Both the position numbers and the translations under genes were made by a program. A stretch of DNA of 53,218 bases, the filler included, from Sluysia triapertura (taxonomy: Eukaryota): NCBI GenBank assembly GCA_046118255.1. It is 4 parts of 4 records of this genome, joined end to end, with 100 filler letters (N's around TTAATTAATTAA, not from the genome) between each part and the next. Parts side by side here need not be neighbours in the genome. Positions count along the whole stretch, not along the records: positions 42,320 to 53,218 come from JBJNIA010191784.1; 3 more parts are not named here. One strand, written 5' to 3'. A model generated the notes under the pieces. The model was not told where the DNA came from, searched no databases, and worked only from the letters and a program-made list of their open reading frames with translations. Of the stretch, positions 5,480-53,218 are shown piece after piece. Each line of letters begins with the position of its first letter. The first letter of the stretch is position 1.

Positions 5480-5975
5480 TAATTTGATTATTCTTTGTGT
5501 TTTTAAATTTTGCTTATATATTAACTTTATTCAATCTCAATTTAGTATGATTTTATTCTATTATAATGCTTTTAAATTTTGATTACATATAATTTTGTCT
5601 ATTCTATCAAATCTTTAATTTAAGTTGGTTTTGATGGAGAATAATGTTATTTATTCTATAATTCTATTCAATCTGAATTTAATAAAATTTATCTTGTGTA
5701 TTATGATATCCTCAATCATGTTTTTATGTTCTTAAAGTTTGATTTCATATTACTGTTACTGATTCTTAGTTTAAATTATTTTAATAGTTATACTAGTACG
5801 GTCTTATATTTATAAACTTTAATTTCATATTGTCTTTATTGAATCTCACTTTAAAATAATTTATTTTTTTTATTATTAATATTATTATTTATTTTAAATT
5901 AATTTTCACTTTAAATTTGGTTGTTATTTGTTAAATTTTGAATTAATATTAACTATATGTAATCTCATTTTAAAT
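5480..5975 (+). repeat. Unclassified AT-rich dispersed repeat with degenerate ~55-60-bp internal units
   Basis: Recurring ttattcaatctcaatttta / ttataatgcttttaaattttgatt motifs. Similar sequence lies at ~200-430, ~36720-36830 and, reverse-complemented, at ~52600-52970. Confidence 0.5.
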
Positions 5976-6148
5976 TGATACTAAAGCAAATTATCTGATG
6001 AGTCGGTTCGCCTAATATATACGCTTTATACCACTAATGGAGACGTATTATTAGGATTTAATATAATTCCTTAATTAGTGCTTAACCTAACACTCTTACT
6101 TACAGACAGTTTAAATCAATTAATTAAATTAATCAAATTTATATATGT

Positions 6149-7493: not shown

Positions 7494-7566
7494 GGGCTGA
7501 TAGCTCAGTGGGTAGAACATCGAACTAAGCAGCGAGATGGCCCGGGTTGGAATCCCAGTCAGTCCA
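7494..7566 (+). pseudogene. tRNA-like sequence (tRNA pseudogene or SINE head), isotype unassignable
   Basis: 73 nt. Acceptor stem GGGCTGA/TCAGTCC, A-box TAGCTCAGTGGGTAGA, degenerate B-box GGTTGGAATCCC, followed by TTTT. The anticodon stem is mispaired. Confidence 0.75.
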
Positions 7567-8554
7567 TTTTACGAAGTCTAGCAGGATGATGAGAAATTAT
7601 AATGTCAGTATTGATTTTATTTACACTGCATATATATATATATATATATATATGATTTGATGTTTTATGATTTTGTATGTGTCTACATAACAATTAAATC
7701 AATATTAATATGAATTTTTGAACATTTTAATGTGAACATTTTTGGACATTTTAATTTTAATTTAAGTATTTTATTTTTGATTTTATAAAAATTTAATATT
7801 TTATAATATAATTTTAATTCAAACGTAACTATCGAGAGATTAAATTATTTAATTTAAATTTTTAATACAAATTAATTTTGTTTAAATACAACTATAAGCT
7901 GACCTTCAAAAAAGCTGCAATAAAAATGCATAAACTCACAACAAAACATTTTCTTAAAAATATCTTTTGTTCGCTTTTCTAGCTCTAACAATTATAAAAT
8001 ATATTTAAGCTGGGTTTGCCTGTGTAACACGATTTATCGTATACGGACGTGTCCACAGGATTTTAACAATCTAAGATGAATTGTGCTTTCAAATAACTTA
8101 ACTCTTTCAGTTACCTGGTAACCTAAATCTTTTAGTTACTTGGTACTTTAATATTTTTTAATTAACTTTCTCGACCTTTAACTAATTTCAGTCCACTTAC
8201 TGTAATATTTTACTAACAATGTTTCCCTTTAAAATACAATACCTTTTAAGACAAAAAATGTTATTCTAATAAAAATGGTATTCTAATCAAGATAAAATGG
8301 TATTCTAATCAAATTTAATTACAAAAATACCGAACAAATTATGAATGAATAATAAATATAATAACAAATATTCGATTTTAAAAAATTAATCCGAGTTTAA
8401 CCCAGGATTAATTCTTGGGTGCAAAATAAAATAGATTTTATGTTGATTTTAAGGCAAAATTTATTAATGCTTCTTAAAAATTACTAGCTTACTTAAAGTA
8501 TTCGAAAAACTCCTTCGAGAGTAATGTCTTGGAATATACGGTATTTGACTTGAA

Positions 8555-8805: not shown

Positions 8806-10977
8806 TATATAAGCATATAATATGTATTATTAAACCGGAAAAATATGATTATTAGTTCTCTGAAAATCAGTCCAATTTTTAACATAAATATTTAAATTAA
8901 GTTTCCGTAATTTTATAATTAGCATTTTTAACATAAATATTTAAATTAAGCTCCAGTAAACATAAATATTAAATTGTAAATTTTATAATTAGCATATTCG
9001 TAAAATATACTTAAAATCAATTATATTTTTCCGTTAACCGTTTAAACGGTTGATATAATTTATTCTTTAAAATTCACTCAAATAAAAATTATTACCTAGA
9101 GTATATTTTTAGTAACGTTTATATAAATATTACAATATCCTCTTATTTTATCTTAAATATATTTTATTTAATACGAATTGCTCCTTTTTACATTCGTCGT
9201 AATTAAAATTTGCATAGTTACACAATTAACCCAACGTTATCAACGACTAGATTTCTGTAATATTAAAATCTAAAAAATTGCAGATTACTTTTTTGAGATC
9301 TAATATGTCATTGCAATAAGACAGAAACTAAATTCTGACACCACTGCTTGAGTTCTTTAGATAGATTATCAACGTTTAACCTCCAAATAACTATTTTATA
9401 CGCCATTTACCTATTATCCATTAAGTAAGTCTAATGTCGTAAGAATTCACGTAGGATAAAATTAAAATAAACAATTATAACATATCTAGCAATAAAACGG
9501 AATACCTAAAATTTTACTTCACACAATAACGCATCATCAAGTAAGGCGAATTTAATGTTGCTGCTGTTAGATCAACACAATGGATAAACTTTGAATTTAT
9601 TTTATTTTATTATTTTAATTTTAATTAAATTAGTTTTTTTGGTAGTAGTTACCTGAAGTTATTGAGATTCCTGGCGTTAAAAGTATATTGTGCATAAGTG
9701 CTTGAATGTAATTGATGCTGATTGAATTATTAGGAATGAAAATGATTATTTCAGTATCAATATAGTTGATAGATTTGAATTATATTTTTCCTGATAGGCT
9801 TTAAGCTAAAATGCAACATTCATTTCGTTTCATTTTTGTAATTGATCTGAACCAAAAGCAACTTATGTAGCTTTAATTTCAATTTCACATGCATCTCCAA
9901 TTCGCGCTTAACAAATTATTTTACCTTGACACAAAAGTTCTGTATTCACAAGCATGATCATAGGACACATTGCCTGCAGCACAAATTTGTTTATGTGCTG
10001 CAAACATAAACTTGATTTGGCTTGCAAACATTGTCGAATCCATTAGTATTTCACGAGTTTGAAAGGCATTACGATAATTTTTGGCGTAAATTCTCATTAT
10101 TCTTCTGTTTGGTTCTTGATAAGCGTTTAAGTGATACTACACATTCAGATAAAACATGATACTTAATGTATAACCAAAAATATTCACCTTATCAGTTTTC
10201 TACATCCATCAAAAATTTTCCTCCTTAAGTTGCATTGACTCAAAAGTTGCAATTGAATTGGCAACTGATATTCTAAATTACCATCGTAACCACAAATTAT
10301 GTTAATACATTTATACTATTGTTTTATTAAACAATGACAAATCTCATTTGCACGAGGATTTTACTTATCCAATACTACAGCTATAATGCAATTACTGTGT
10401 AGATGGTTAAAGTTGTCTCTATGTATTTTGGTGTTTCAAAACATTTACAGCAATTGACGCGATATTTTGTTGATATTTAAATAATGTAAGCTAATAATCA
10501 ATATATAGCTGTTTAATTATCTGCAAACATCATATATTAATTAATAATTAAATTTATTCGTGACACATTATTCATATAATAAATTAAGACACCCATTTAA
10601 TGAAACTCATTAAAAAATTAATGCTACTTAGTATTTTATTTGTGATTGCTTTATTAAAAAGTTACCAAAAATAATTTCCAATAATACTTTAAAAAAATTG
10701 TATCAAGTAGATCTATATATCAACTTGTAATTAATATGTTTGCAAAGTTTAGTGAACTTATATTTTTGAAATTTATAGTCTCATTTGAGGTCAAATTTTA
10801 TTGTAAGCAGTTGCCTTGACAATTTTATAATATAAAGTTATGCACATTCGCAGCTATTTATTATATTTACCACACAACCTAAGTAAATAAACTATACTGC
10901 TTGTATAAATTGTATTGTAGAAAACTATTTTACTTAGTTTATTGATTTATTAAAAATATTTCCAGTATTTTTATACA

Positions 10978-11562
10978 ATGGATGAACAAACGTTTATGAT
11001 GTTTTGTGATTCTACTAAGAAAGGAAGTAAAACTATGACTGATAAAACTTTAAAGAAAGTTTGTACTGATTGTAAATTATATACTAAAACATTTACTGCA
11101 AATGATGTTGATATTGAATTGAGAAAATTCATGGGAAATGCGAAAAAGTAATGGTTAATATTACAGATTATGTTAATGTTGTTAGAGAAATTAATTATTC
11201 AGAATTCAAGAACTTTTTAACTGATACTTTTATTCCTGCTTATGCAAAACGAAATAAATTGGATGAAGCTAAAGCTACTGCTGAAGTCAATGATAAAATA
11301 CAAAAAGGTTCGCCAAAATCTCATGGAGCAACTGTAAGATTGATTATTAAATATCCATTAGTATTAGAAAGAATCTGGAGATGATGCAACAAAACGATTA
11401 ACTGATGTTAAAGGTTACACTGGAGCTCATAAAGAACGATTTGATGCAGATACGGGAAAAGGTAAAGGAAAGGAAGGTCGGGAGTATGTTGTTGACGATA
11501 AAGCATCTTCTGGTTATGTGGGAAATTATAAAGGTAAAGATACTTATGATAAAACTCATTAA
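10978..11562 (+). CDS. TPPP: Tubulin polymerization-promoting protein (p25-alpha family), complete; exons 10978-11147, 11186-11333, 11368-11562; 170 aa
   Basis: Removing two GT-AG introns (38 and 34 nt) gives one open frame [18 protein letters not shown]...KVCTDCKL...[29 protein letters not shown]...[16 protein letters not shown]. It contains the hallmark p25-alpha RLTDxxxYTGxHKERFD and GKGKGxxGR motifs. Confidence 0.96.
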
Positions 11563-13119: not shown

Positions 13120-15360
13120 AAGTAAATAGAATAAAAACTTAACTAAACTTAACCAACTCACTGAACTTACCAGTTAGGGCCAGTCGTTGGTTTTATAAAT
13201 CAAGATAAGTCTCAATAATATACTAATAGAACTTTAGTGCTCAATCCTACCTGGAGACAAAATTTATTAATGTCTATTGTTAAGATTCTCTGATAATTGT
13301 CAAATTTAGGTTTTCTTATCAAGGATGTAAATAGATTTGAAGGTTTTGCGTCTTAGTATCTAGAAAAACTTTGATTATAAATAGAATTAAAATTTATTTA
13401 GTAATTTTACGTAGATTCCATTATATGGAATCGTGACAGTAGATTTTACTTGCTAGAGTTAAATTCTAGCTTCTTGAAAGCAACAGTAATTTTAAATATT
13501 AACAAATGTTAAAGCTATACGTAAATAAGTAAGTAACAAAAAATGTATTAAATATTTAAAATAAAATCTTTGCCCGAAGGCTGTACTAATAATGATTTTA
13601 TTGTTTGCATGTAGTTGAGAAGGCAGTATTTGTGGCTTGATCTGGAGCATCTCCTGGAGTATTGGCTGTAGCGGCATTAGTAGATTGCTGTCTGATTGTT
13701 GGGTACTGAGATAATTCTGGTTCATGAATATTCTAAATGACATTTTACCATTCCCATAGAGATATCGACGAGCAATTTATTTATCGTGGATTTACTGAAA
13801 TTGAAATTTTTAAGTATGCTAATATTCTTGGTACTCATTGTTCCCAATGCTGGAAAGATTAAGGTAAATATTTTGACCTTGCGCCGGACGATTCTATTAA
13901 GATGCAGAGAGAATTGTGAATACTTTATTGAGTTTTTCCTATGAATGTCTGGATATGATTCGATTTTATCAAATGGGGTTTTAATGTCAATATGAAAGTA
14001 ACAGTCATTGTATAGAAAGAGTAAGTGGTCAGAAACATCGGGTCGGTTCGCATTGAGCATCACAGTTAACATCAATGCCATTATCCCTGAAGAGAGAAGC
14101 GACAAGTCCAAATGCTAAGTTGTGGCGCGAAGTGATAAGGCTGGGATTGAAAGGGCAGTGATTAAGAACGTGAGGTGCATATTCATCGAGAACATCGACG
14201 ATAGTTAATGGGAAATTTTTCTTTCAAGTTTTGCACATTGAAGTTTAGAGATAAAGTATTTGTTCGGGCTCTGAGTAAGAAGAAGAAACTCTTATCTGGG
14301 ATTTCGGAGCTCATGAGCATTCTATTTGTAAGGCGAGACTGTGTCAGGAAAGAAGTTAGAAGAGATTGGAATTTCAAGGATTGCCATCGTAGAAAGTGAG
14401 ACAACCCTGTCAGTTGATGAAAGGTCTGAGTGACGTTATCCTTTTCATCTTTGGTGAAGGTAAATGATAGAGAAGGAATCATCCACAAAGGCAAACAAGA
14501 CTTATATATCATGTTTTGATTTAAGAGACTTACAACAGTCCCTAACGTTGGACTACAGGGTTGACTTTAGTGGGTACATTTCAGAATTAGTTATGCCAGA
14601 AAGCCAGTTGAGAGTCGTAATAATATCTGGTTTCCTGAAGTATAGTTTAGAGTTTTCCTTAAGATATTCTAGAGAAAAACGTCGAAGAGTATTGTCGCCA
14701 GAGGTAAAGATACGGAAGCAGTGGACTATAGTTTGAATCAAGTATTCGCTGTGGAGAGAAGTAAAGCCGAGTCCTCCGAGATCTACAGTAGTGTAAAAGT
14801 AGTCAATGGGTGATGATCGGAAGTGAATTTGAAGAGCGGGTCTCAGGATGTTTCTAAAACTTTGGTCGAAAGAAGGCGTGTTTCTATCAGTGTAATTGTG
14901 CACTCCCAAGTTTAGTTATTAATGAAATAATTATAAAGAAAAAAAGTTATTAACAAACTTATACAGAAAATTAAAGAAAAAATTTCTAAGAATTATCAAT
15001 AATAATAATAAATTACAGAACTAACTATCTTAGTTAGTTAATTAATAAAATGATTTTAAAAATACATTTTACCAACGATCCAATATATGATCCAAATGAA
15101 TTAAATGAATTTAAGTAGATTTTGCTTATGATATTTTAGAAAATACCTAACTTATTACAATTAAACTAACGTGATTTATAAAAGTCTTTTCTTTTAGACA
15201 AGAACAAATAAACGTAATTGAATCGTGTGCAAAGAGACCAGACAAAGATTTACAAAAACTTCTAAGTAAATGATTTGGATAACAAAATTGTGTGTCAATT
15301 ACAAAAATGTTAACGTATATATAGTTGTTTTAGTCTGACCTATAAAAGACTAAAACAAAA
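13120..15360 (+). repeat. Dispersed repeat family A, copy 1 (hairpin core 13153-13190), split by the RLE retrotransposon
   Basis: Core ccaac..ctgaacttaccagttagggccagtcgttgg. The segments 13120-13590 and 14910-15360 are together colinear with the reverse complement of 51770-52480, ending in gttgttttagtctgacct. Confidence 0.75.
13590..14909 (-). mobile_element. 5'-truncated, frameshifted RLE-type non-LTR retrotransposon (R2 group, NeSL/Utopia-like)
   Basis: Minus-strand fragments in order: YFYTTVDLGGLG, RWQSLKFQ, LRARTNTL, zinc knuckle (Y)RRC..DEYAPHVLNHC, RHN, RPD, IDIKTPFD and K..KY of the PD-(D/E)xK endonuclease. A short 3' UTR ends at AATAAA near 13600. GC content is higher than in the flanks. 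Confidence 0.9.
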
Positions 15361-15794: not shown

Positions 15795-15894
15795 NNNNNN
15801 NNNNNNNNNNNNNNNNNNNNNNNNNNNNNNNNNNNNNNTTAATTAATTAANNNNNNNNNNNNNNNNNNNNNNNNNNNNNNNNNNNNNNNNNNNN
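15795..15894. other. Artificial contig linker
   Basis: N44-TTAATTAATTAA-N44, 100 nt. The palindrome has stops in all six frames. Confidence 0.97.
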
Positions 15895-29680: not shown

Positions 29681-29780
29681 NNNNNNNNNNNNNNNNNNNN
29701 NNNNNNNNNNNNNNNNNNNNNNNNTTAATTAATTAANNNNNNNNNNNNNNNNNNNNNNNNNNNNNNNNNNNNNNNNNNNN
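29681..29780. other. Artificial contig linker
   Basis: N44-TTAATTAATTAA-N44. Confidence 0.97.
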
Positions 29781-36569: not shown

Positions 36570-36642
36570 GTGCTGATAGCTCAGTGGTAGAGCAGTCGGA
36601 CTGCGCAGACGATGGTCCCGGGTTCGATCCCCGGTCAGTCCA
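36570..36642 (+). pseudogene. tRNA-like sequence, second copy of 7494-7566
   Basis: Intact D arm GCTC-AGTGGTA-GAGC, intact T arm CCGGG-TTCGATC-CCCGG, acceptor 3' strand TCAGTCC-A, then TTTTACGAAGTCTA as in copy 1. The anticodon arm does not pair canonically. Confidence 0.8.
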
Positions 36643-42219: not shown

Positions 42220-42319
42220 NNNNNNNNNNNNNNNNNNNNNNNNNNNNNNNNNNNNNNNNNNNNTTAATTAATTAANNNNNNNNNNNNNNNNNNNNNNNNN
42301 NNNNNNNNNNNNNNNNNNN
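42220..42319. other. Artificial contig linker
   Basis: N44-TTAATTAATTAA-N44. Confidence 0.97.
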
Positions 42320-42506
42320 AAAAGTAGATCACGATAAAATTATACTTGATATACTAACTATTGAAATTATTAAGGTTTAAACTGATCAAGATAATAGTTA
42401 GTTAAATATTTAACAATTTTTAAAGACGCAACAGTTTAATAAATAATCCGGATTTAACTTAGAAGTTATCAACAAACCCAATTCACAAAACAATGGCGCC
42501 GATTGT

Positions 42507-43812
42507 ATGTCGCGGCTGACAAACGTAGATGATAAAGGAAATATTAATTTAATACAAATTATGGCAATATCGAGTAAGGTTCAAGACACTAAGGAAATTA
42601 TCAAACATCAAAGGGAAGATGAAGAAATTTCATCTATCATTCATTCATTAGCGAATGAGACGCTAGTCGAAAATCAAGCAAAGAGATTGGCCATTACGGA
42701 CGGAATTCTTCGATTTAGAGATTCGAAGGAAGATTGGAAAGCGATAGTCCCCAAATCATTAATAACACGAATTCTAATACAATTACATAATGATCAGCTG
42801 GGTGGACATTAAGGAAAACATTATCACGCATAAAAGATAAATATTATTGGAAGGTCATGGAAGAAGATATTAGAAAACGGTGTAAGAATCCTTCATTTTG
42901 TTGTAGAAGAAAGAACATAGGAGTTAGACAAAGGTACCACTCAAACCAATGCCGGTACCATTATCACCCATGGAATTTACAGCAATGGATATAATGGGAC
43001 CATTACCAGAAACTATTAATGGAAATAAATATATTATTGTATTTGCTGACTACTTAACTAAATGGCCTGAGGCATACTCATTACCAAATCAAAAAGCCGA
43101 AACAGTTGCACAAGTACTTGTTGAAAAAATAATATACAGATAAGGTACGACACGGAAACTATTAAGTGATCAAGGCACAAATTTCACTAGTGATGTAATT
43201 AAATCAGTGGCCAAAATATTTGATATTCTAAGAATTTACACATCACCTTATCACCCACAAACTGACGGATTAGTTGAGAGATTTAATCGAACATTGATAA
43301 ACATGCTTCAATCTTATGTTAACGACAGACAATCAGATTGGGACCTCTATATTGCACCATGTTTATTTGCATCCAGCAACAAATTTTACTCCATTTTATC
43401 TAATATCATGCGTCACTCAAATATGCCAGTGGATTTAGAATGGATAACACCTACATCACAATACGTGGGCACGCTTGAATATGTAACAATAATGCACGAG
43501 AGACTACAAGATGCGTGGAAGCGTGCGGGTTTACAAATAAAATGTTCACAAGAGGCATATAAGGATGCATACGATAAGAAAGCTAAAGAGCACAATTTTC
43601 AAATTGGTGATAAAGTACTCATCGAATATCCACTAACTAAACCAGGTCAATCACGAAAGTTACATAAACCACCGATACCAATATATTTGTTAAAGATATA
43701 ACCAAACTAGACTCTGAAACTTTTGTAGTACATGCTAACAGATGTAAGATAGCACCAAGCGACGAATACCAATTAAGAAATAGAACTCTTAAGAAATCAA
43801 AATTAAAAGGAT
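42507..43812 (+). pseudogene. Gypsy-type integrase (HHCC + DDE core + C-terminal region), with stops and frameshifts
   Basis: Motifs LHNDQLGGH, AMDIMGPLP, DYLTKWPEA, LLSDQGTNF, TSPYHPQTDGLVERFNRTL, YDKKAKEHNFQIGDKVL and VVHANRCK..YQLRNR. The GPY motif appears deleted. Confidence 0.95.
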
Positions 43813-44220
43813 GAAAGACCGCAATAAACCATCATCTTCAGTTCAGTCACTGATTGATAAACAAGTAGTAATGATGTATCATGTATCAAGTGGAATACGT
43901 ACACATATTTTCCAAAACGTACGATTTAATGAGAGATGGATCCAAGCAGTCATAGATACAGGAGCAACCACATGGGTGATACATTACAATTTTTTGACTA
44001 CATGGGAAGTCGCGTTCTTAGATCCATCGCGAACAATAATTTATAACGTGAAGCGGACACCGATAAATAATACATGGACATATTAGATAAGCGAATAAAT
44101 GAATCTCCTTTTGATTTAATAATTGGTTTTGATATACTTGATAAATTAGATGACACAGTCATAAATTACAAGTATGGTCTTATAAAATTCCCTCAAGGTG
44201 CACAATTAATATTTCCACAA
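43811..44220 (+). pseudogene. Retropepsin-like aspartic protease domain downstream of the integrase
   Basis: IQAVIDTGATTWVIH carries the catalytic DTG at 43955. After a frameshift, SPFDLIIGFDILDKL...INY gives the C-terminal IIGxD motif. Confidence 0.85.
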
Positions 44221-44246
44221 GTTGTTACTCCATCTTTCAATACTCC

Positions 44247-44247
<1 letters not shown>

Positions 44248-44301
<54 letters not shown>
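44248..44301 (+). repeat. In-frame (AAT)n microsatellite encoding poly-Asn inside the retrotransposon ORF
   Basis: About 18 AAT units within ORF 44074-44520. Confidence 0.95.
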
Positions 44302-44302
<1 letters not shown>

Positions 44303-44514
44303 TTGCTCCGATTCACATCCCGACATCTGATATCCAACCTATTAATCCAGTTCCGTTACCGAGTTACTTGTCTGATTTGTTTTGGGATGAGTCATCCACA
44401 GACTCATCATTGTCAGCAGTAATGAATGAATTTTCGGATTCATCATCATCAGGAATTGGCTATGTTGATACAGTAATGCTAACATTTGCTAAGCCGAGTA
44501 ATAGTAAGAAATCA

Positions 44515-45600
44515 TGGTGAACAACAATACTAATAGTTATACTAATTTATACTCTTATCTCTAATTAATTTTGCTAAAGCTATAGATATTGAAGAAGATG
44601 AGGAATATAGAAATTTATACGCCGCTATTAATAACGGGAAAGAACAAAAGATATCAATTACAAACATTTACAATGAGTATTGGGAAATAAAATTTTCTTC
44701 AAAGAAAATGTTTTTAAGACATATATTTGATATATACTTCATTTATTTAGAACCATTATTAATAGGTAAACCACATCACATAGATATGATCCCGCGAAAG
44801 TTTACAATACGCATATAGACCAATGATAATAGCATTCGCATTAGATACTAAACGAAACACTAGAAAAGTGCAAAGCTGGATAGGAAATGTTACAACAAAT
44901 AAATATATGAATAATTGTATGTCTGAATTTAGAAAAAAAACAATCCATCAGACAGTATGTTGTCTAACGTTTTTACATTGATATATAAACTAATGTCAAT
45001 ATCTATAATCTTAATAGTAGTATATGCACTTTGGATCATATTACATGTAGTTGATTTTAGTAGAAAGGTATATGTATTCACAGTTAATAAAAATCTAATA
45101 CCTTTAACGTTATTCATGATAATTACTACAATACATTGTAATACATATGAAGTACAAATCTACGAAACCGAATATCTCGAATTTCGAAATTATGACACAG
45201 AAGTAAGAATTAAAGTGTTACAGAATGACATTTATGAGATTTATGTGTTACAGGAAGTGTTACAGAATGAGATTTATGTGCCCAAAACCAACTCGACTTA
45301 ACTTTAGTTATTGGAACGTTCAAGAATATTAAATTAATAATTTAGTCAACCCCATTGCTATATGCACTGATTTTTTGGATAATGAAGAACGGCACATTAT
45401 TAATAGAATATATGTGGCACCAGCAAAATTAGAACAATTGTATTTTGCATTAAAGGGAACTCGAAAATATTTATCGTTATCAGAAATGTTGAAAAATGAT
45501 CCAGCCTTATTGATATTAATATTAGCAACAATACTATTTATTATCGCTTTATCGATAGTTGTACTGATAATTATTATGTTTGTAGATATCCAACTTCAAT
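44515..45600 (+). pseudogene. Membrane polyprotein-like (env-position) ORF relic of the LTR element
   Basis: Hydrophobic segments TTILIVILIYTLIS..AKA|IDIEED, SISIILIVVYALWIILHVV, LIPLTLFMIITTIHC|NTYE and ALLILILATILFIIALSIVVLIIIMFV, separated by ~100-130-aa polar domains. Confidence 0.55.
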
Positions 45601-45690
45601 TACCTTTCTTTTTGTTCTTCCCCCAGCTCCTTTTCCCTCTTCACTTTCTAATCCCTTTACCAATGACACCGCTAATTTGAAGCGCTGGAC

Positions 45691-46351
45691 ATGCCTTTTG
45701 GTTGGTTACGAGATGTGATGAACTTGTCTAATCACAACTTCATCCCTTTCTCTACCGATGACATTTTCACACGTGCAAGACAGAGGTTAAAAATCGTCTA
45801 CCGCGTATGTCCAAAGTTCACATGCAAGCAATTGGCATCTGAACTTGTTACCGTGTTAGATTACATTAGGGAAAGAGACCTCACTTTCATCCAACTTTGT
45901 AACGACCCTCTTCCTACTCTTTTCTAAGCCTGTTACTAAACCTTTTCCTACTCAAACACCACGGTTTGCTGCTGATATTCATTCTCCAAAAACTTCTCCC
46001 AGTTCACGACAAAATCAGTCAGCATCGTCATCTTCATTTATCAATCCAAGTAAAGAACAGAAATCATCATTATCATCATCGTCATCCGTCGTTCAAGAAA
46101 TTAAACAGCAACCGGTATCATCATCATGACCTTCGTCTGTCTTCGTCAAACTCCAAACCCCAAAAAGAAAATCACCCAACCTTCCAAAAGAACATCAATA
46201 CCTTTCCCAAAATCAAAACCCACTAGATTCTCCTCCACTGGAAGATGTGCCTGTACATCGTCCATGGAAACGATCTTATTACGGCACACTCACAGATTCG
46301 CTACCACCACATTGGCTCAAAGATGAAGAAGTCGACCTAGACTCCTACTGA
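45691..46351 (+). pseudogene. Terminal accessory ORF of the LTR element: small N-terminal domain plus Ser/Pro-rich tail
   Basis: MPFGWLRDVMNL...LCNDPLPTL continues, after one frameshift near 45920, as SKPVTKPFPTQTPRF...SSSSSVVQEIKQQPVSSS*PSSVF...HRPWKRSYYGTLTDSLPPHWLKDEEVDLDSY*. Confidence 0.55.
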
Positions 46352-46412
46352 TCCTGTAGTCATTTTAATTTATTTCGAGATTTGCGGACGAATCTTCCCG
46401 TTGGTGAAGTAT

Positions 46413-47090
46413 TGTGAGGACGCTGAGATCAATTATAGATCAATTGTAGATTTAAAACAATTCGACTGAATTTTATAACAATCATTTTATTTTATTTGAC
46501 AAAATATTTACTTTTATTATAAAATAATAATAATCAATAAATTAAATTGAAATTAACCTCGTTTAAATGGAAATAATTAAATTAAAATTAAATAAGTTAT
46601 TTTAATTTAAATCAATTTAATTTAATTATGATCTAATTTTAAATTTTAATTTAATTTTAATCAATTTCATAAATTTTGTTTAACTTGGCAAACATGCACT
46701 ATGGCTGCTGAAAATTTTATATATAAACCAGTATGTTTAGTAAAATTTTCAGAACAAGTCATTTGCTGTGAAAATCTGTCGACGTCCATCAATCAATTTC
46801 CATGACGTATCAAGTAAGATTTTTTCATGATAACTTTACCTTCTCATCGTAACTTGGAGAAGTAAAATCTACTCAAAATCTTAACAAATTTAATTTAATT
46901 TCTTAATACTTATTTGTATTATTGACAGTTTATAATTGTCTAGCATATCTGACCATAATTAGTATTTGCTGTGAAATTAGTTGGATCATTTGTCGTAATT
47001 GTTTTATTATAATAATGACGATTTGTTTTGTAACTGACTAAAATAATTTATTTCACCCGACTTTAAAGATGAAAGATTACTAAGCTTACA
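46413..47090 (+). repeat. Putative 3' LTR (~680 bp)
   Basis: Starts TGTGAG right after GGACGAATCTTCCCGTTGGTGAAGTAT (Gypsy PPT-region-like) and ends CTTACA (imperfect terminal inverted repeat). A TATA-like TATATAAA lies at ~46720. No second LTR is available to confirm the ends. Confidence 0.6.
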
Positions 47091-52480: not shown

Positions 52481-53218
52481 TCACATTAGTAATATAAATG
52501 TAACATAATATTCATCCATTTTTCAATTTTTCAACCTAAATCATATTTAAATTTCATAACATCATCCATTTTTTCTAAATTAAATCAAAAATTTATGTAA
52601 TTTAAATTTATTTAAAAAATAAAATTATTTCAAAGTAAAATTAAAATCATTATTATTAAGATTATAATGCGTTATATCAATTTAAATTGAGATTTAATAG
52701 AGTTAATATAAATTTAATATAACTAATTTAAATTGAAATTAAACAAAATGTCATTTTAAAATGAGATTCTATAAAGACAATATAATATTAAATTTTAAGA
52801 ACATGATATGAGAGTTAAAATTATATTATATTGAGATTGAATAAAACCAGTACATAATTGAAAATTAGTAATATTATTTTCGATTAAAATTAACTTAAAT
52901 TGAAGTAGAAAGAATAATGTAATTTCAAATTTATAAGCATTATAATCGAGTAATTATTATAATTATTATTAAGTAATTATTAATCATTACTTAACCCTTT
53001 TGCCGCCGCTGGGACCAATTTCTGCAAGTTTCTCAGGCTTAAGTAGGTCATGTTACATATTGTTTTAGAGGATTAAATAAGGACAATGTTTTGCATAATC
53101 CTTTCTGCTTTTAAAGTGTGTGTGCACAAAGTTATTTCAACAATATACCACCATTTTGTGAGAAAAATATTTGAATCAAATAAAATAAGTGAAAATATTA
53201 TAAAGTCTAAAGTTATTA

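Follow-up and report, generated by a model that had tools for sequence, protein, structure and literature searches.

A retropepsin downstream of the integrase in a decayed Ty3/Gypsy element of Sluysia triapertura and in some related elements

The question raised by this locus is why an aspartic protease should stand 3′ of the integrase in a retrotransposon of the Ty3/Gypsy type, whether it belongs to the element at all, and what it might do there. Domain order in Pol is a defining trait of the groups of LTR retrotransposons, and to our knowledge a single aspartic protease (PR) upstream of the reverse transcriptase (RT) has been treated as invariant in Ty3/Gypsy. The canonical order, as given in the available portion of PMC5408684, is PR-RT-RNase H (RH)-integrase (IN).

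The window, by which we mean the whole stretch of 53,218 nucleotides that was analysed, is AT-rich (mostly 17–30% GC) and poor in genes: no more than 10 stop-to-stop frames reach 100 aa. Its exons match the armadillo, p25-alpha, prominin and cadherin families, which suggests an animal genome. Three identical gaps (44 N, TTAATTAATTAA, 44 N) interrupt it at 15795–15894, 29681–29780 and 42220–42319. The p25-alpha/TPPP gene lies at 10978–11562 (+) (Pfam E 1e-8) and apparently has, judged by eye, two introns of about 34–38 nt. One tRNA-Arg(gcg) was found by ARAGORN at 36570–36642 (+), and a tRNA-like stretch recognized by eye at about 7495–7570 (+) may be the head of a SINE. The weak match of a 71-codon frame at 9924–10136 (−) to Monjiviricetes_fusion, a family of viral fusion glycoproteins, is probably due to chance (E 0.022). 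A GC-richer, decayed coding remnant at 13300–14915 (−) has no Pfam match; its motifs recall, in our reading, those found at the 3′ ends of non-LTR retrotransposons. Finally, a dispersed AT-rich repeat family is represented at 317–420 and 52617–52720, two copies inverted with respect to each other (86%) and separated by 52 kb, and also at 5500–5980.

The element of interest occupies the + strand from 42354. What is seen here is the 3′ half of an LTR retrotransposon of the Ty3/Gypsy type, a dead copy decayed throughout by many stops and frame changes; the 5′ part of the element is truncated by the last of the gaps (42220–42319, 100 nt). The first recognizable piece is the decayed C-terminal part of RNase H (42354–42518, +), detected by tblastn and aligned to positions 77–125 of the 125 in the RH profile of the clade (E 2e-4). 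It is followed by the RH-IN linker and the HHCC zinc-binding domain of the integrase, spread across two frames (42519–42927, +; tblastn, and Pfam Integrase_H2C2 with E 3.8e-5 at 42812–42916), then by the DDE core and the region after it, with one internal stop (42928–43671, +; Pfam rve with E 8.1e-11 at 42973–43257; 49–64% identity to the related proteins P0001–P0013), and then, in another frame, by the C-terminal end of the integrase, which tblastn to the clade proteins traces to about 43790 (43656–43790, +). Both the HHCC finger and the DDE core expected behind the RNase H of a Ty3/Gypsy element are present in the window. The GPY/F stretch is gone from this copy, at a break; GPY or GPF is seen in relatives.

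Two motifs behind the integrase mark the protease. IDTGA (43952–43966) follows a hydrophobic strand and supplies the D-[TS]-G of retropepsins, with the codon of the catalytic Asp at 43955–43957; it lies in the N-terminal part of the domain (43811–44083, +), an ATG frame identified by Pfam, by the clade profile and by comparison with shuffles. IIGFD (44119–44133) supplies the hydrophobic-hydrophobic-G-x-D motif of the retropepsin C-terminal part, and belongs to a second piece in a different frame (44095–44151, +; clade profile positions 81–99, E 0.21; tblastn to P0001 960–989). When a profile seeded with eight proteases of related elements (P0122 being outside the seed) was run against all six frames of the window, it matched 43904–44068 at its positions 4–58 with E 7e-7; the score of 27.6 bits was reached by none of 1000 shuffles, whose maximum was 6.2. 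A retropepsin on the same strand as, and 3′ of, an RNase H end and an integrase, as proposed in a preliminary description of this DNA, is thus borne out. The same description had read IDTGAT...DLIIGFDIL as one fold: both motifs are indeed present, but the halves do not share a frame, and about 20 profile positions are missing between them. A complete retropepsin domain of about 100 residues is found in the relatives P0001, P0002, P0003 and P0122, and not in the window copy; this incompleteness weakens the case that the protease was functional here, not the identity of the domain.

Searches that start from the decayed copy itself give less. Pfam recognizes the window protease as gag-asp_proteas (E 0.001), RVP (0.035) and Asp_protease_2 (0.064), none of which reaches its curated cut-off. 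In a word-indexed protein search with the 91-aa window protease as query, none of 16 candidates was accepted, and against the PDB there were only two chance matches (E>0.4). The sole match among 1.84 billion representatives, P0121, was rejected as consisting of tandem repeats without the protease motif; this is an 801-aa database protein built of near-perfect repeats. The window protease is 22–27% identical to three of the proteases of the relatives, and the best match of the window tail is the post-IN junction plus protease of P0002 (E 3e-5).

Beyond the protease, the window copy continues with a low-complexity linker, made of a poly-Asn stretch (AAT repeat) and a Ser-rich stretch (44152–44517, +), which is open in the frame of the C-terminal part of the protease (ORF 44071–44520). 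A signal-peptide-like hydrophobic segment then extends over more than one frame (44527–44580, +; 44527–44577 in the hydropathy scan); its position in relatives suggests a signal role. There follow a putative, decayed ectodomain (44581–45500, +), in which stretches of 90 and 122 codons are open, with an extra hydrophobic stretch at 44990–45040 and no Pfam match, a strong transmembrane-like (TM) segment (45531–45581, +; mean hydropathy 3.5), and a putative, decayed cytoplasmic tail (45582–46351, +), in which an 83-codon open segment precedes a Ser/Pro-rich stretch and a stop at 46349–46351, and which matches no Pfam family at E<0.05. The 83-codon segment (45676–45924, +) contains Cys/His, and the tails that follow the TM segment in relatives are much shorter. 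A single-sequence fold of 44933–45298 gave one long helix (pTM 0.29) and was rejected as uninformative. A candidate boundary between the internal region and the 3′ LTR lies at 46380–46460 (+), with TGTGAGG at 46413, and resembles what we take to be Gypsy PPT/LTR junctions; TGTGAGG, as a candidate start of the 3′ LTR, has no partner copy within the window. Elsewhere in the window there is no similarity to the gag side, to a further protease or to RT, and neither a second copy of the element nor a repeat flanking the protease was found. The earlier statement that no LTR, gag or RT is visible stands to this extent, with the exception of the candidate at 46413; no conclusion on the structure of the element can be drawn from the lack of gag and RT upstream, because the RNase H match starts only 34 nt past the gap.

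The design of the element was therefore sought in its relatives. The integrase query retrieved, among 1931 candidates, 970 proteins at E≤1e-30; 120 of these are listed, the domain counts rest on those listed, and the searches for relatives covered proteins up to 2000 and 2265 aa. In an IN tree of 34 rows, which took in 33 of the 120 listed matches, P0001–P0013 and the window form one clade (support 100/99). A further query, P0003 520–700, added P0122 (2 of 78 candidates matched, one being the query itself). Thirteen of the 14 clade proteins run past the integrase, and in four of the 13 a retropepsin follows it directly in the same frame, whereas it is absent there in all 107 other integrase matches listed. 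Eight of the 14 proteins show the RVT_1-RH-IN order; no RT lies within the window. The four carriers differ in what accompanies the protease: P0001 has the order RH-IN-PR-finger-PR, with two post-IN proteases and no hydrophobic segment; P0002 is IN-PR; P0003 is RH-IN-PR-linker-signal-repeats-TM in a single frame; and P0122, also in a single frame, is RT-RH-IN-PR-dead PR-ankyrins-signal-repeats-TM. The protease of P0122 matches the clade profile with E 4.5e-23, and those of the other three, which are in the profile seed, are supported independently by Pfam. The distance from the motif at the end of the integrase to the catalytic Asp is 62–69 residues in P0001, P0002, P0003 and P0122, compared with 227 nt in the window. 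The same position, the same frame and the same spacing from the integrase indicate that the protease is part of the design of the element, not a nested fragment, and that it extends Pol, one of the two possibilities previously suggested. A single IN-PR-TM frame, which had also been asked after, exists in P0003 and P0122; in the window copy it is broken.

In the four relatives and in the window, the first post-IN protease has kept both D-[TS]-G and hydrophobic-hydrophobic-G-x-D, and both are intact in the second post-IN protease of P0001 as well. P0122 953–1041 is a second protease-like domain that has lost DTG and is catalytically dead. In that protein an active-type retropepsin and the protease-like domain without DTG (816–1041), and then ankyrins (about 1154–1368), are lined up between the integrase and the membrane protein; the tandem of protease and pseudo-protease could fold as a single-chain pair. 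When two copies of P0002 338–456 were modelled, a DTG-DTG dimer was predicted with a score of 0.38 compared with 0.15 for the best control, with contacts agreeing at 68% or more and pLDDT of at least 71. In a benchmark, 21 of 30 solved pairs but none of 23 single chains reached the mark for a dimer (17 of 29 and 0 of 30 for eukaryotes); since retropepsin dimers have already been solved, the pass of P0002 may reflect the memory of the model, and shows likeness only.

A normal protease before RT is visible in five records of the clade, P0005 (via the contig L001), P0006, P0007, P0009 and P0010 (partial), none of which has a post-IN protease; conversely, the pre-RT region is in view in none of the five elements that carry one. 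No record combines a protease ahead of RT with one behind the integrase, so that the post-IN enzyme would be a second protease of the same element, as the preliminary description had it, only by extrapolation across the clade. Surplus proteases are found on either side: P0007, and apparently P0006, has two before RT, and P0001 and P0122 have two after IN. P0007 has finger-PR-PR before RT, and its first protease is the nearest match (34% identity; support 90/81 in the PR tree) to the second post-IN protease of P0001, which likewise follows a finger. P0009 has signal-repeat-TM both before its protease and after the integrase. Judged from these domain orders, the clade moves cargo to both sides of RT-RH-IN: extra and dead proteases, a zinc finger, ankyrins and a signal-FN3-TM protein.

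P0005–P0012 and the contig L002 pass from the integrase directly to a hydrophobic signal-like segment, with no protease in between. No remnant of a protease at the level of the profile was found after the integrase in P0004, P0012 and L002, despite strand-like motifs noticed by eye; the ORF of P0004 stops 144 residues past the integrase, with neither PR nor TM. A short hydrophobic site, which we take to resemble retropepsin cleavage sites, lies directly 3′ of the integrase in carriers and non-carriers of the protease alike. Both L001 and L002 are short contigs in bacterial MAGs, made of eukaryote-type retrotransposon sequence, and most likely represent binning contamination.

As to the nature of the membrane cargo, when 10 proteins were scanned with an iterated profile, 8 of them proved to contain a repeat of about 75 residues, in 20 copies altogether. 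P0008 440–730 is assigned to FN3 clusters in the Atlas with a score of 0.93, although shuffled proteins reach 0.9 in 4–10 of 100 cases, and a low-confidence model of P0008 (mean pLDDT 48.6) matches fibronectin FN3 modules in Foldseek with E 4e-8, a result weighed only jointly with that of the Atlas. For P0003 585–1294 there was no usable match in the Atlas. Together these results indicate that the membrane protein of the relatives is FN3-like, and not an Env of the F or gB type. An FN3-like repeat ectodomain and a TM segment in frame with Pol occur in P0003, P0005–P0011 and P0122, in L001 (2–4654) and in L002 (1–1890), and such a fusion may be no less unusual than the protease. The profile of these repeats scored 3.1 bits on the window ectodomain, a value equalled or exceeded by 124 of 200 shuffles.

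The post-IN proteases have diverged considerably: those of the four relatives share 24–32% identity, and those of all five elements, including the window, 22–32%. In P0002, P0003 and P0122 the post-IN proteases are 28–32% identical, as against 77–83% for the integrases; in the one comparable pair of pre-RT proteases the identity is 49% at 74% for the integrase. Divergence at such a rate would also be compatible with a host target or with relaxed constraint and, like the loss of DTG from the second copy in P0122, speaks against a simple housekeeping role. A single clade of the five carriers is rejected (p-AU 0.015), and the distribution of the post-IN protease requires 3 changes on an IN tree of 18 rows; an early single gain followed by losses, repeated gains, and recombination would all be compatible with this. 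Most of the PR tree lacks resolution, and it leaves the window protease unplaced, its join with P0001 being flagged as a meeting of long branches.

These results can be interpreted as follows. We put slightly short of an even chance on the reading in which the post-IN protease is an optional, once-active paralogue that helps to process the 3′ polyprotein. The Pol frame of the clade extends past the integrase into variable cargo, of which the first item in the window element would be an extra retropepsin, paralogous to the clade's own proteases and translated in frame with the integrase, followed by a linker and then by the signal-ectodomain-TM protein. That the domain is a retropepsin, that it stands behind the integrase, and that integrase and protease share one frame in the intact relatives is observed. 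The domain would be a working homodimeric aspartic protease, excised from the polyprotein at the hydrophobic site just past the integrase. A single polyprotein would enter the ER at the signal-like segment, leaving integrase and protease in the cytosol, and host signal peptidase would release the ectodomain; in the step of which we are least sure, the retropepsin would free the integrase and the cargo from a membrane-tethered precursor on the cytosolic side. Since sister elements lack it, the post-IN protease is optional, and these elements presumably rely on their pre-RT protease. Against the proposed role stands its being non-essential, since in P0005–P0012 and L002 the membrane cargo, or at least its beginning, is found without a post-IN protease; in the ORF of P0001, which has two post-IN proteases and no hydrophobic segment, there would be nothing membrane-bound to release.

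Other readings were weighed against the optional paralogue. That the motif arose by chance, or belongs to a fragment of an unrelated nested element, would agree with the Pfam scores below cut-off and with direct searches that found no true relative of the window protease, but is largely refuted, and close to nil in our estimate, in view of the shuffles, of the same position and single frame in four relatives, and of the lack of gag, RT or a flanking repeat nearby. The domain could also be a neutral passenger, duplicated by template switching during reverse transcription, which is the usual source of such rearrangements, and tolerated in frame with no selected function. Its dispensability in the clade, its fast divergence and the dead domain of P0122 point that way; drift, however, would not have kept the motifs in the first post-IN protease of all five elements and in the second of P0001 at 22–32% identity, which leaves this idea a slim chance. 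Dedication of the protease to maturing the downstream membrane protein, in the manner of an Env-processing enzyme, had been considered in the preliminary description and is probably wrong. While P0003 and P0122 have IN-PR-linker-signal-ectodomain-TM in a single frame, and the window has the same order, nine relatives carry the membrane protein or its start without the protease and P0001 carries the protease without membrane cargo; moreover, a protease encoded before the signal-like segment would remain on the cytosolic side, with the ectodomain out of its reach, and the ectodomain of the relatives appears FN3-like rather than a fusogen needing priming. We consider such a dedicated enzyme very unlikely.

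A relocated sole protease, with the order RT-RH-IN-PR, none before RT and the post-IN enzyme performing all of Gag-Pol maturation, would account for the fact that the two states never coincide (five records with a pre-RT protease and no post-IN one, five post-IN elements with no visible pre-RT region), and for the different places of the block of finger and protease in two close relatives, ahead of RT in P0007 and behind IN in P0001. The missing co-occurrence is, however, accounted for by fragmentary records, by the lengths of 2000 and 2265 aa covered in the searches and by the gap; relocation would have to recur, because the carriers are not one clade (p-AU 0.015), and surplus proteases are frequent in the clade, all of which makes it, too, very improbable. 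Alternatively, the protease might be an accessory directed at the host, released to the cytosol to cleave host proteins and belonging to the same class of cargo as the ankyrins that adjoin it in P0122. Divergence that is fast relative to the integrase with catalytic motifs intact, a patchy distribution requiring 3 changes on the IN tree, and the host-regulatory domains of the Burro polyprotein described in PMC6431247 all favour such a role. The contrast in rates, though, was drawn between three sequences related to one another and a single comparable pair of pre-RT proteases. Retropepsins of retroelements normally act on their own polyproteins, and a host target seems to us decidedly unlikely. 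In a broader formulation, the window element would represent an undescribed animal Ty3/Gypsy lineage whose single long polyprotein is assembled from mobile cassettes: retropepsins in active and dead form, ankyrins, a C2H2-like finger and, instead of a fusogenic Env, an FN3-TM protein resembling a receptor. Its post-IN protease would be either fast-evolving and host-directed or the sole protease (RT-RH-IN-PR). Taken as a whole, this formulation is unlikely.

The value of these observations lies in the family, not in the dead copy of the window. A clade that repeatedly carries motif-conserved retropepsins after the integrase, and an FN3-TM protein that is not a known fusogen, would widen the range of cargo attached to Pol. 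It would also offer natural material for studying the division of labour among several retropepsins in one polyprotein (homodimer, heterodimer, pseudo-enzyme), and for asking whether retroelements use surface proteins that are not fusogens. Classifiers based on domain order would label such copies as nested or chimeric. In the parts of the open-access literature available, no aspartic protease after the integrase and no FN3-TM cargo are described; the family may sit in Repbase, GyDB or Dfam, in supplements or in subscription journals under a plain Gypsy name. In the accessible main text of PMC13524379 'protease' occurs once and 'fibronectin' and 'ankyrin' never, and in what is available of PMC9094657 FN3 figures only as the topology of a class II fusogen domain.

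Several known systems resemble the element in part. Ginger1 DNA transposons, in the available text of PMC2836005, have a Gypsy-like integrase with a C-terminal protease fusion; there the protease is a cysteine protease of the OTU or Ulp1 type in a DNA transposon, whereas here it is aspartic and RNase H precedes the integrase. The window element, with its RNase H, does not belong to Ginger1, which has no RT or RH and an OTU/Ulp1 protease. The LTR retrotransposons of bdelloid rotifers share with it a variable cargo 3′ of the integrase (TM proteins, a GDSL esterase, a DEDDy nuclease), which is encoded, however, in a separate ORF3, and the accessible part of PMC5408684 lists no aspartic protease, FN3 or ankyrin among it. 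Errantiviruses, in the portions available of PMC13524379, are likewise Ty3/Gypsy elements that encode a membrane glycoprotein, either 3′ of IN or in between gag and pol, but their Env is of the F or gB type, in contrast to the FN3-like repeats of the relatives. Burro/GYPSM1 of planarians, according to the available part of PMC6431247, is a giant Gypsy element whose polyprotein has many in-frame accessory domains, including ankyrins, and a membrane protein that may precede the protease. A multi-domain Gypsy polyprotein, ankyrin repeats and a membrane protein are common to both, while Burro has an F-like env between BCL2 and PR, in addition to BIR, MATH and Smc, and that part of PMC6431247 mentions no second protease or FN3; Pfam scans of the 14 clade proteins, all partial, found no BIR, BCL2, MATH or env domain. 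With Ty3/Gypsy proper (Metaviridae) the likeness lies in the RNase H followed by an HHCC-DDE integrase in the window, in the PR-RT-RH-IN order of relatives and in the best PDB sequence match of P0002, which is Ty3 Gag-Pol (E 9e-18); what sets the present clade apart is that its Pol runs in frame into one or two retropepsins and other cargo, with surplus proteases before RT as well.
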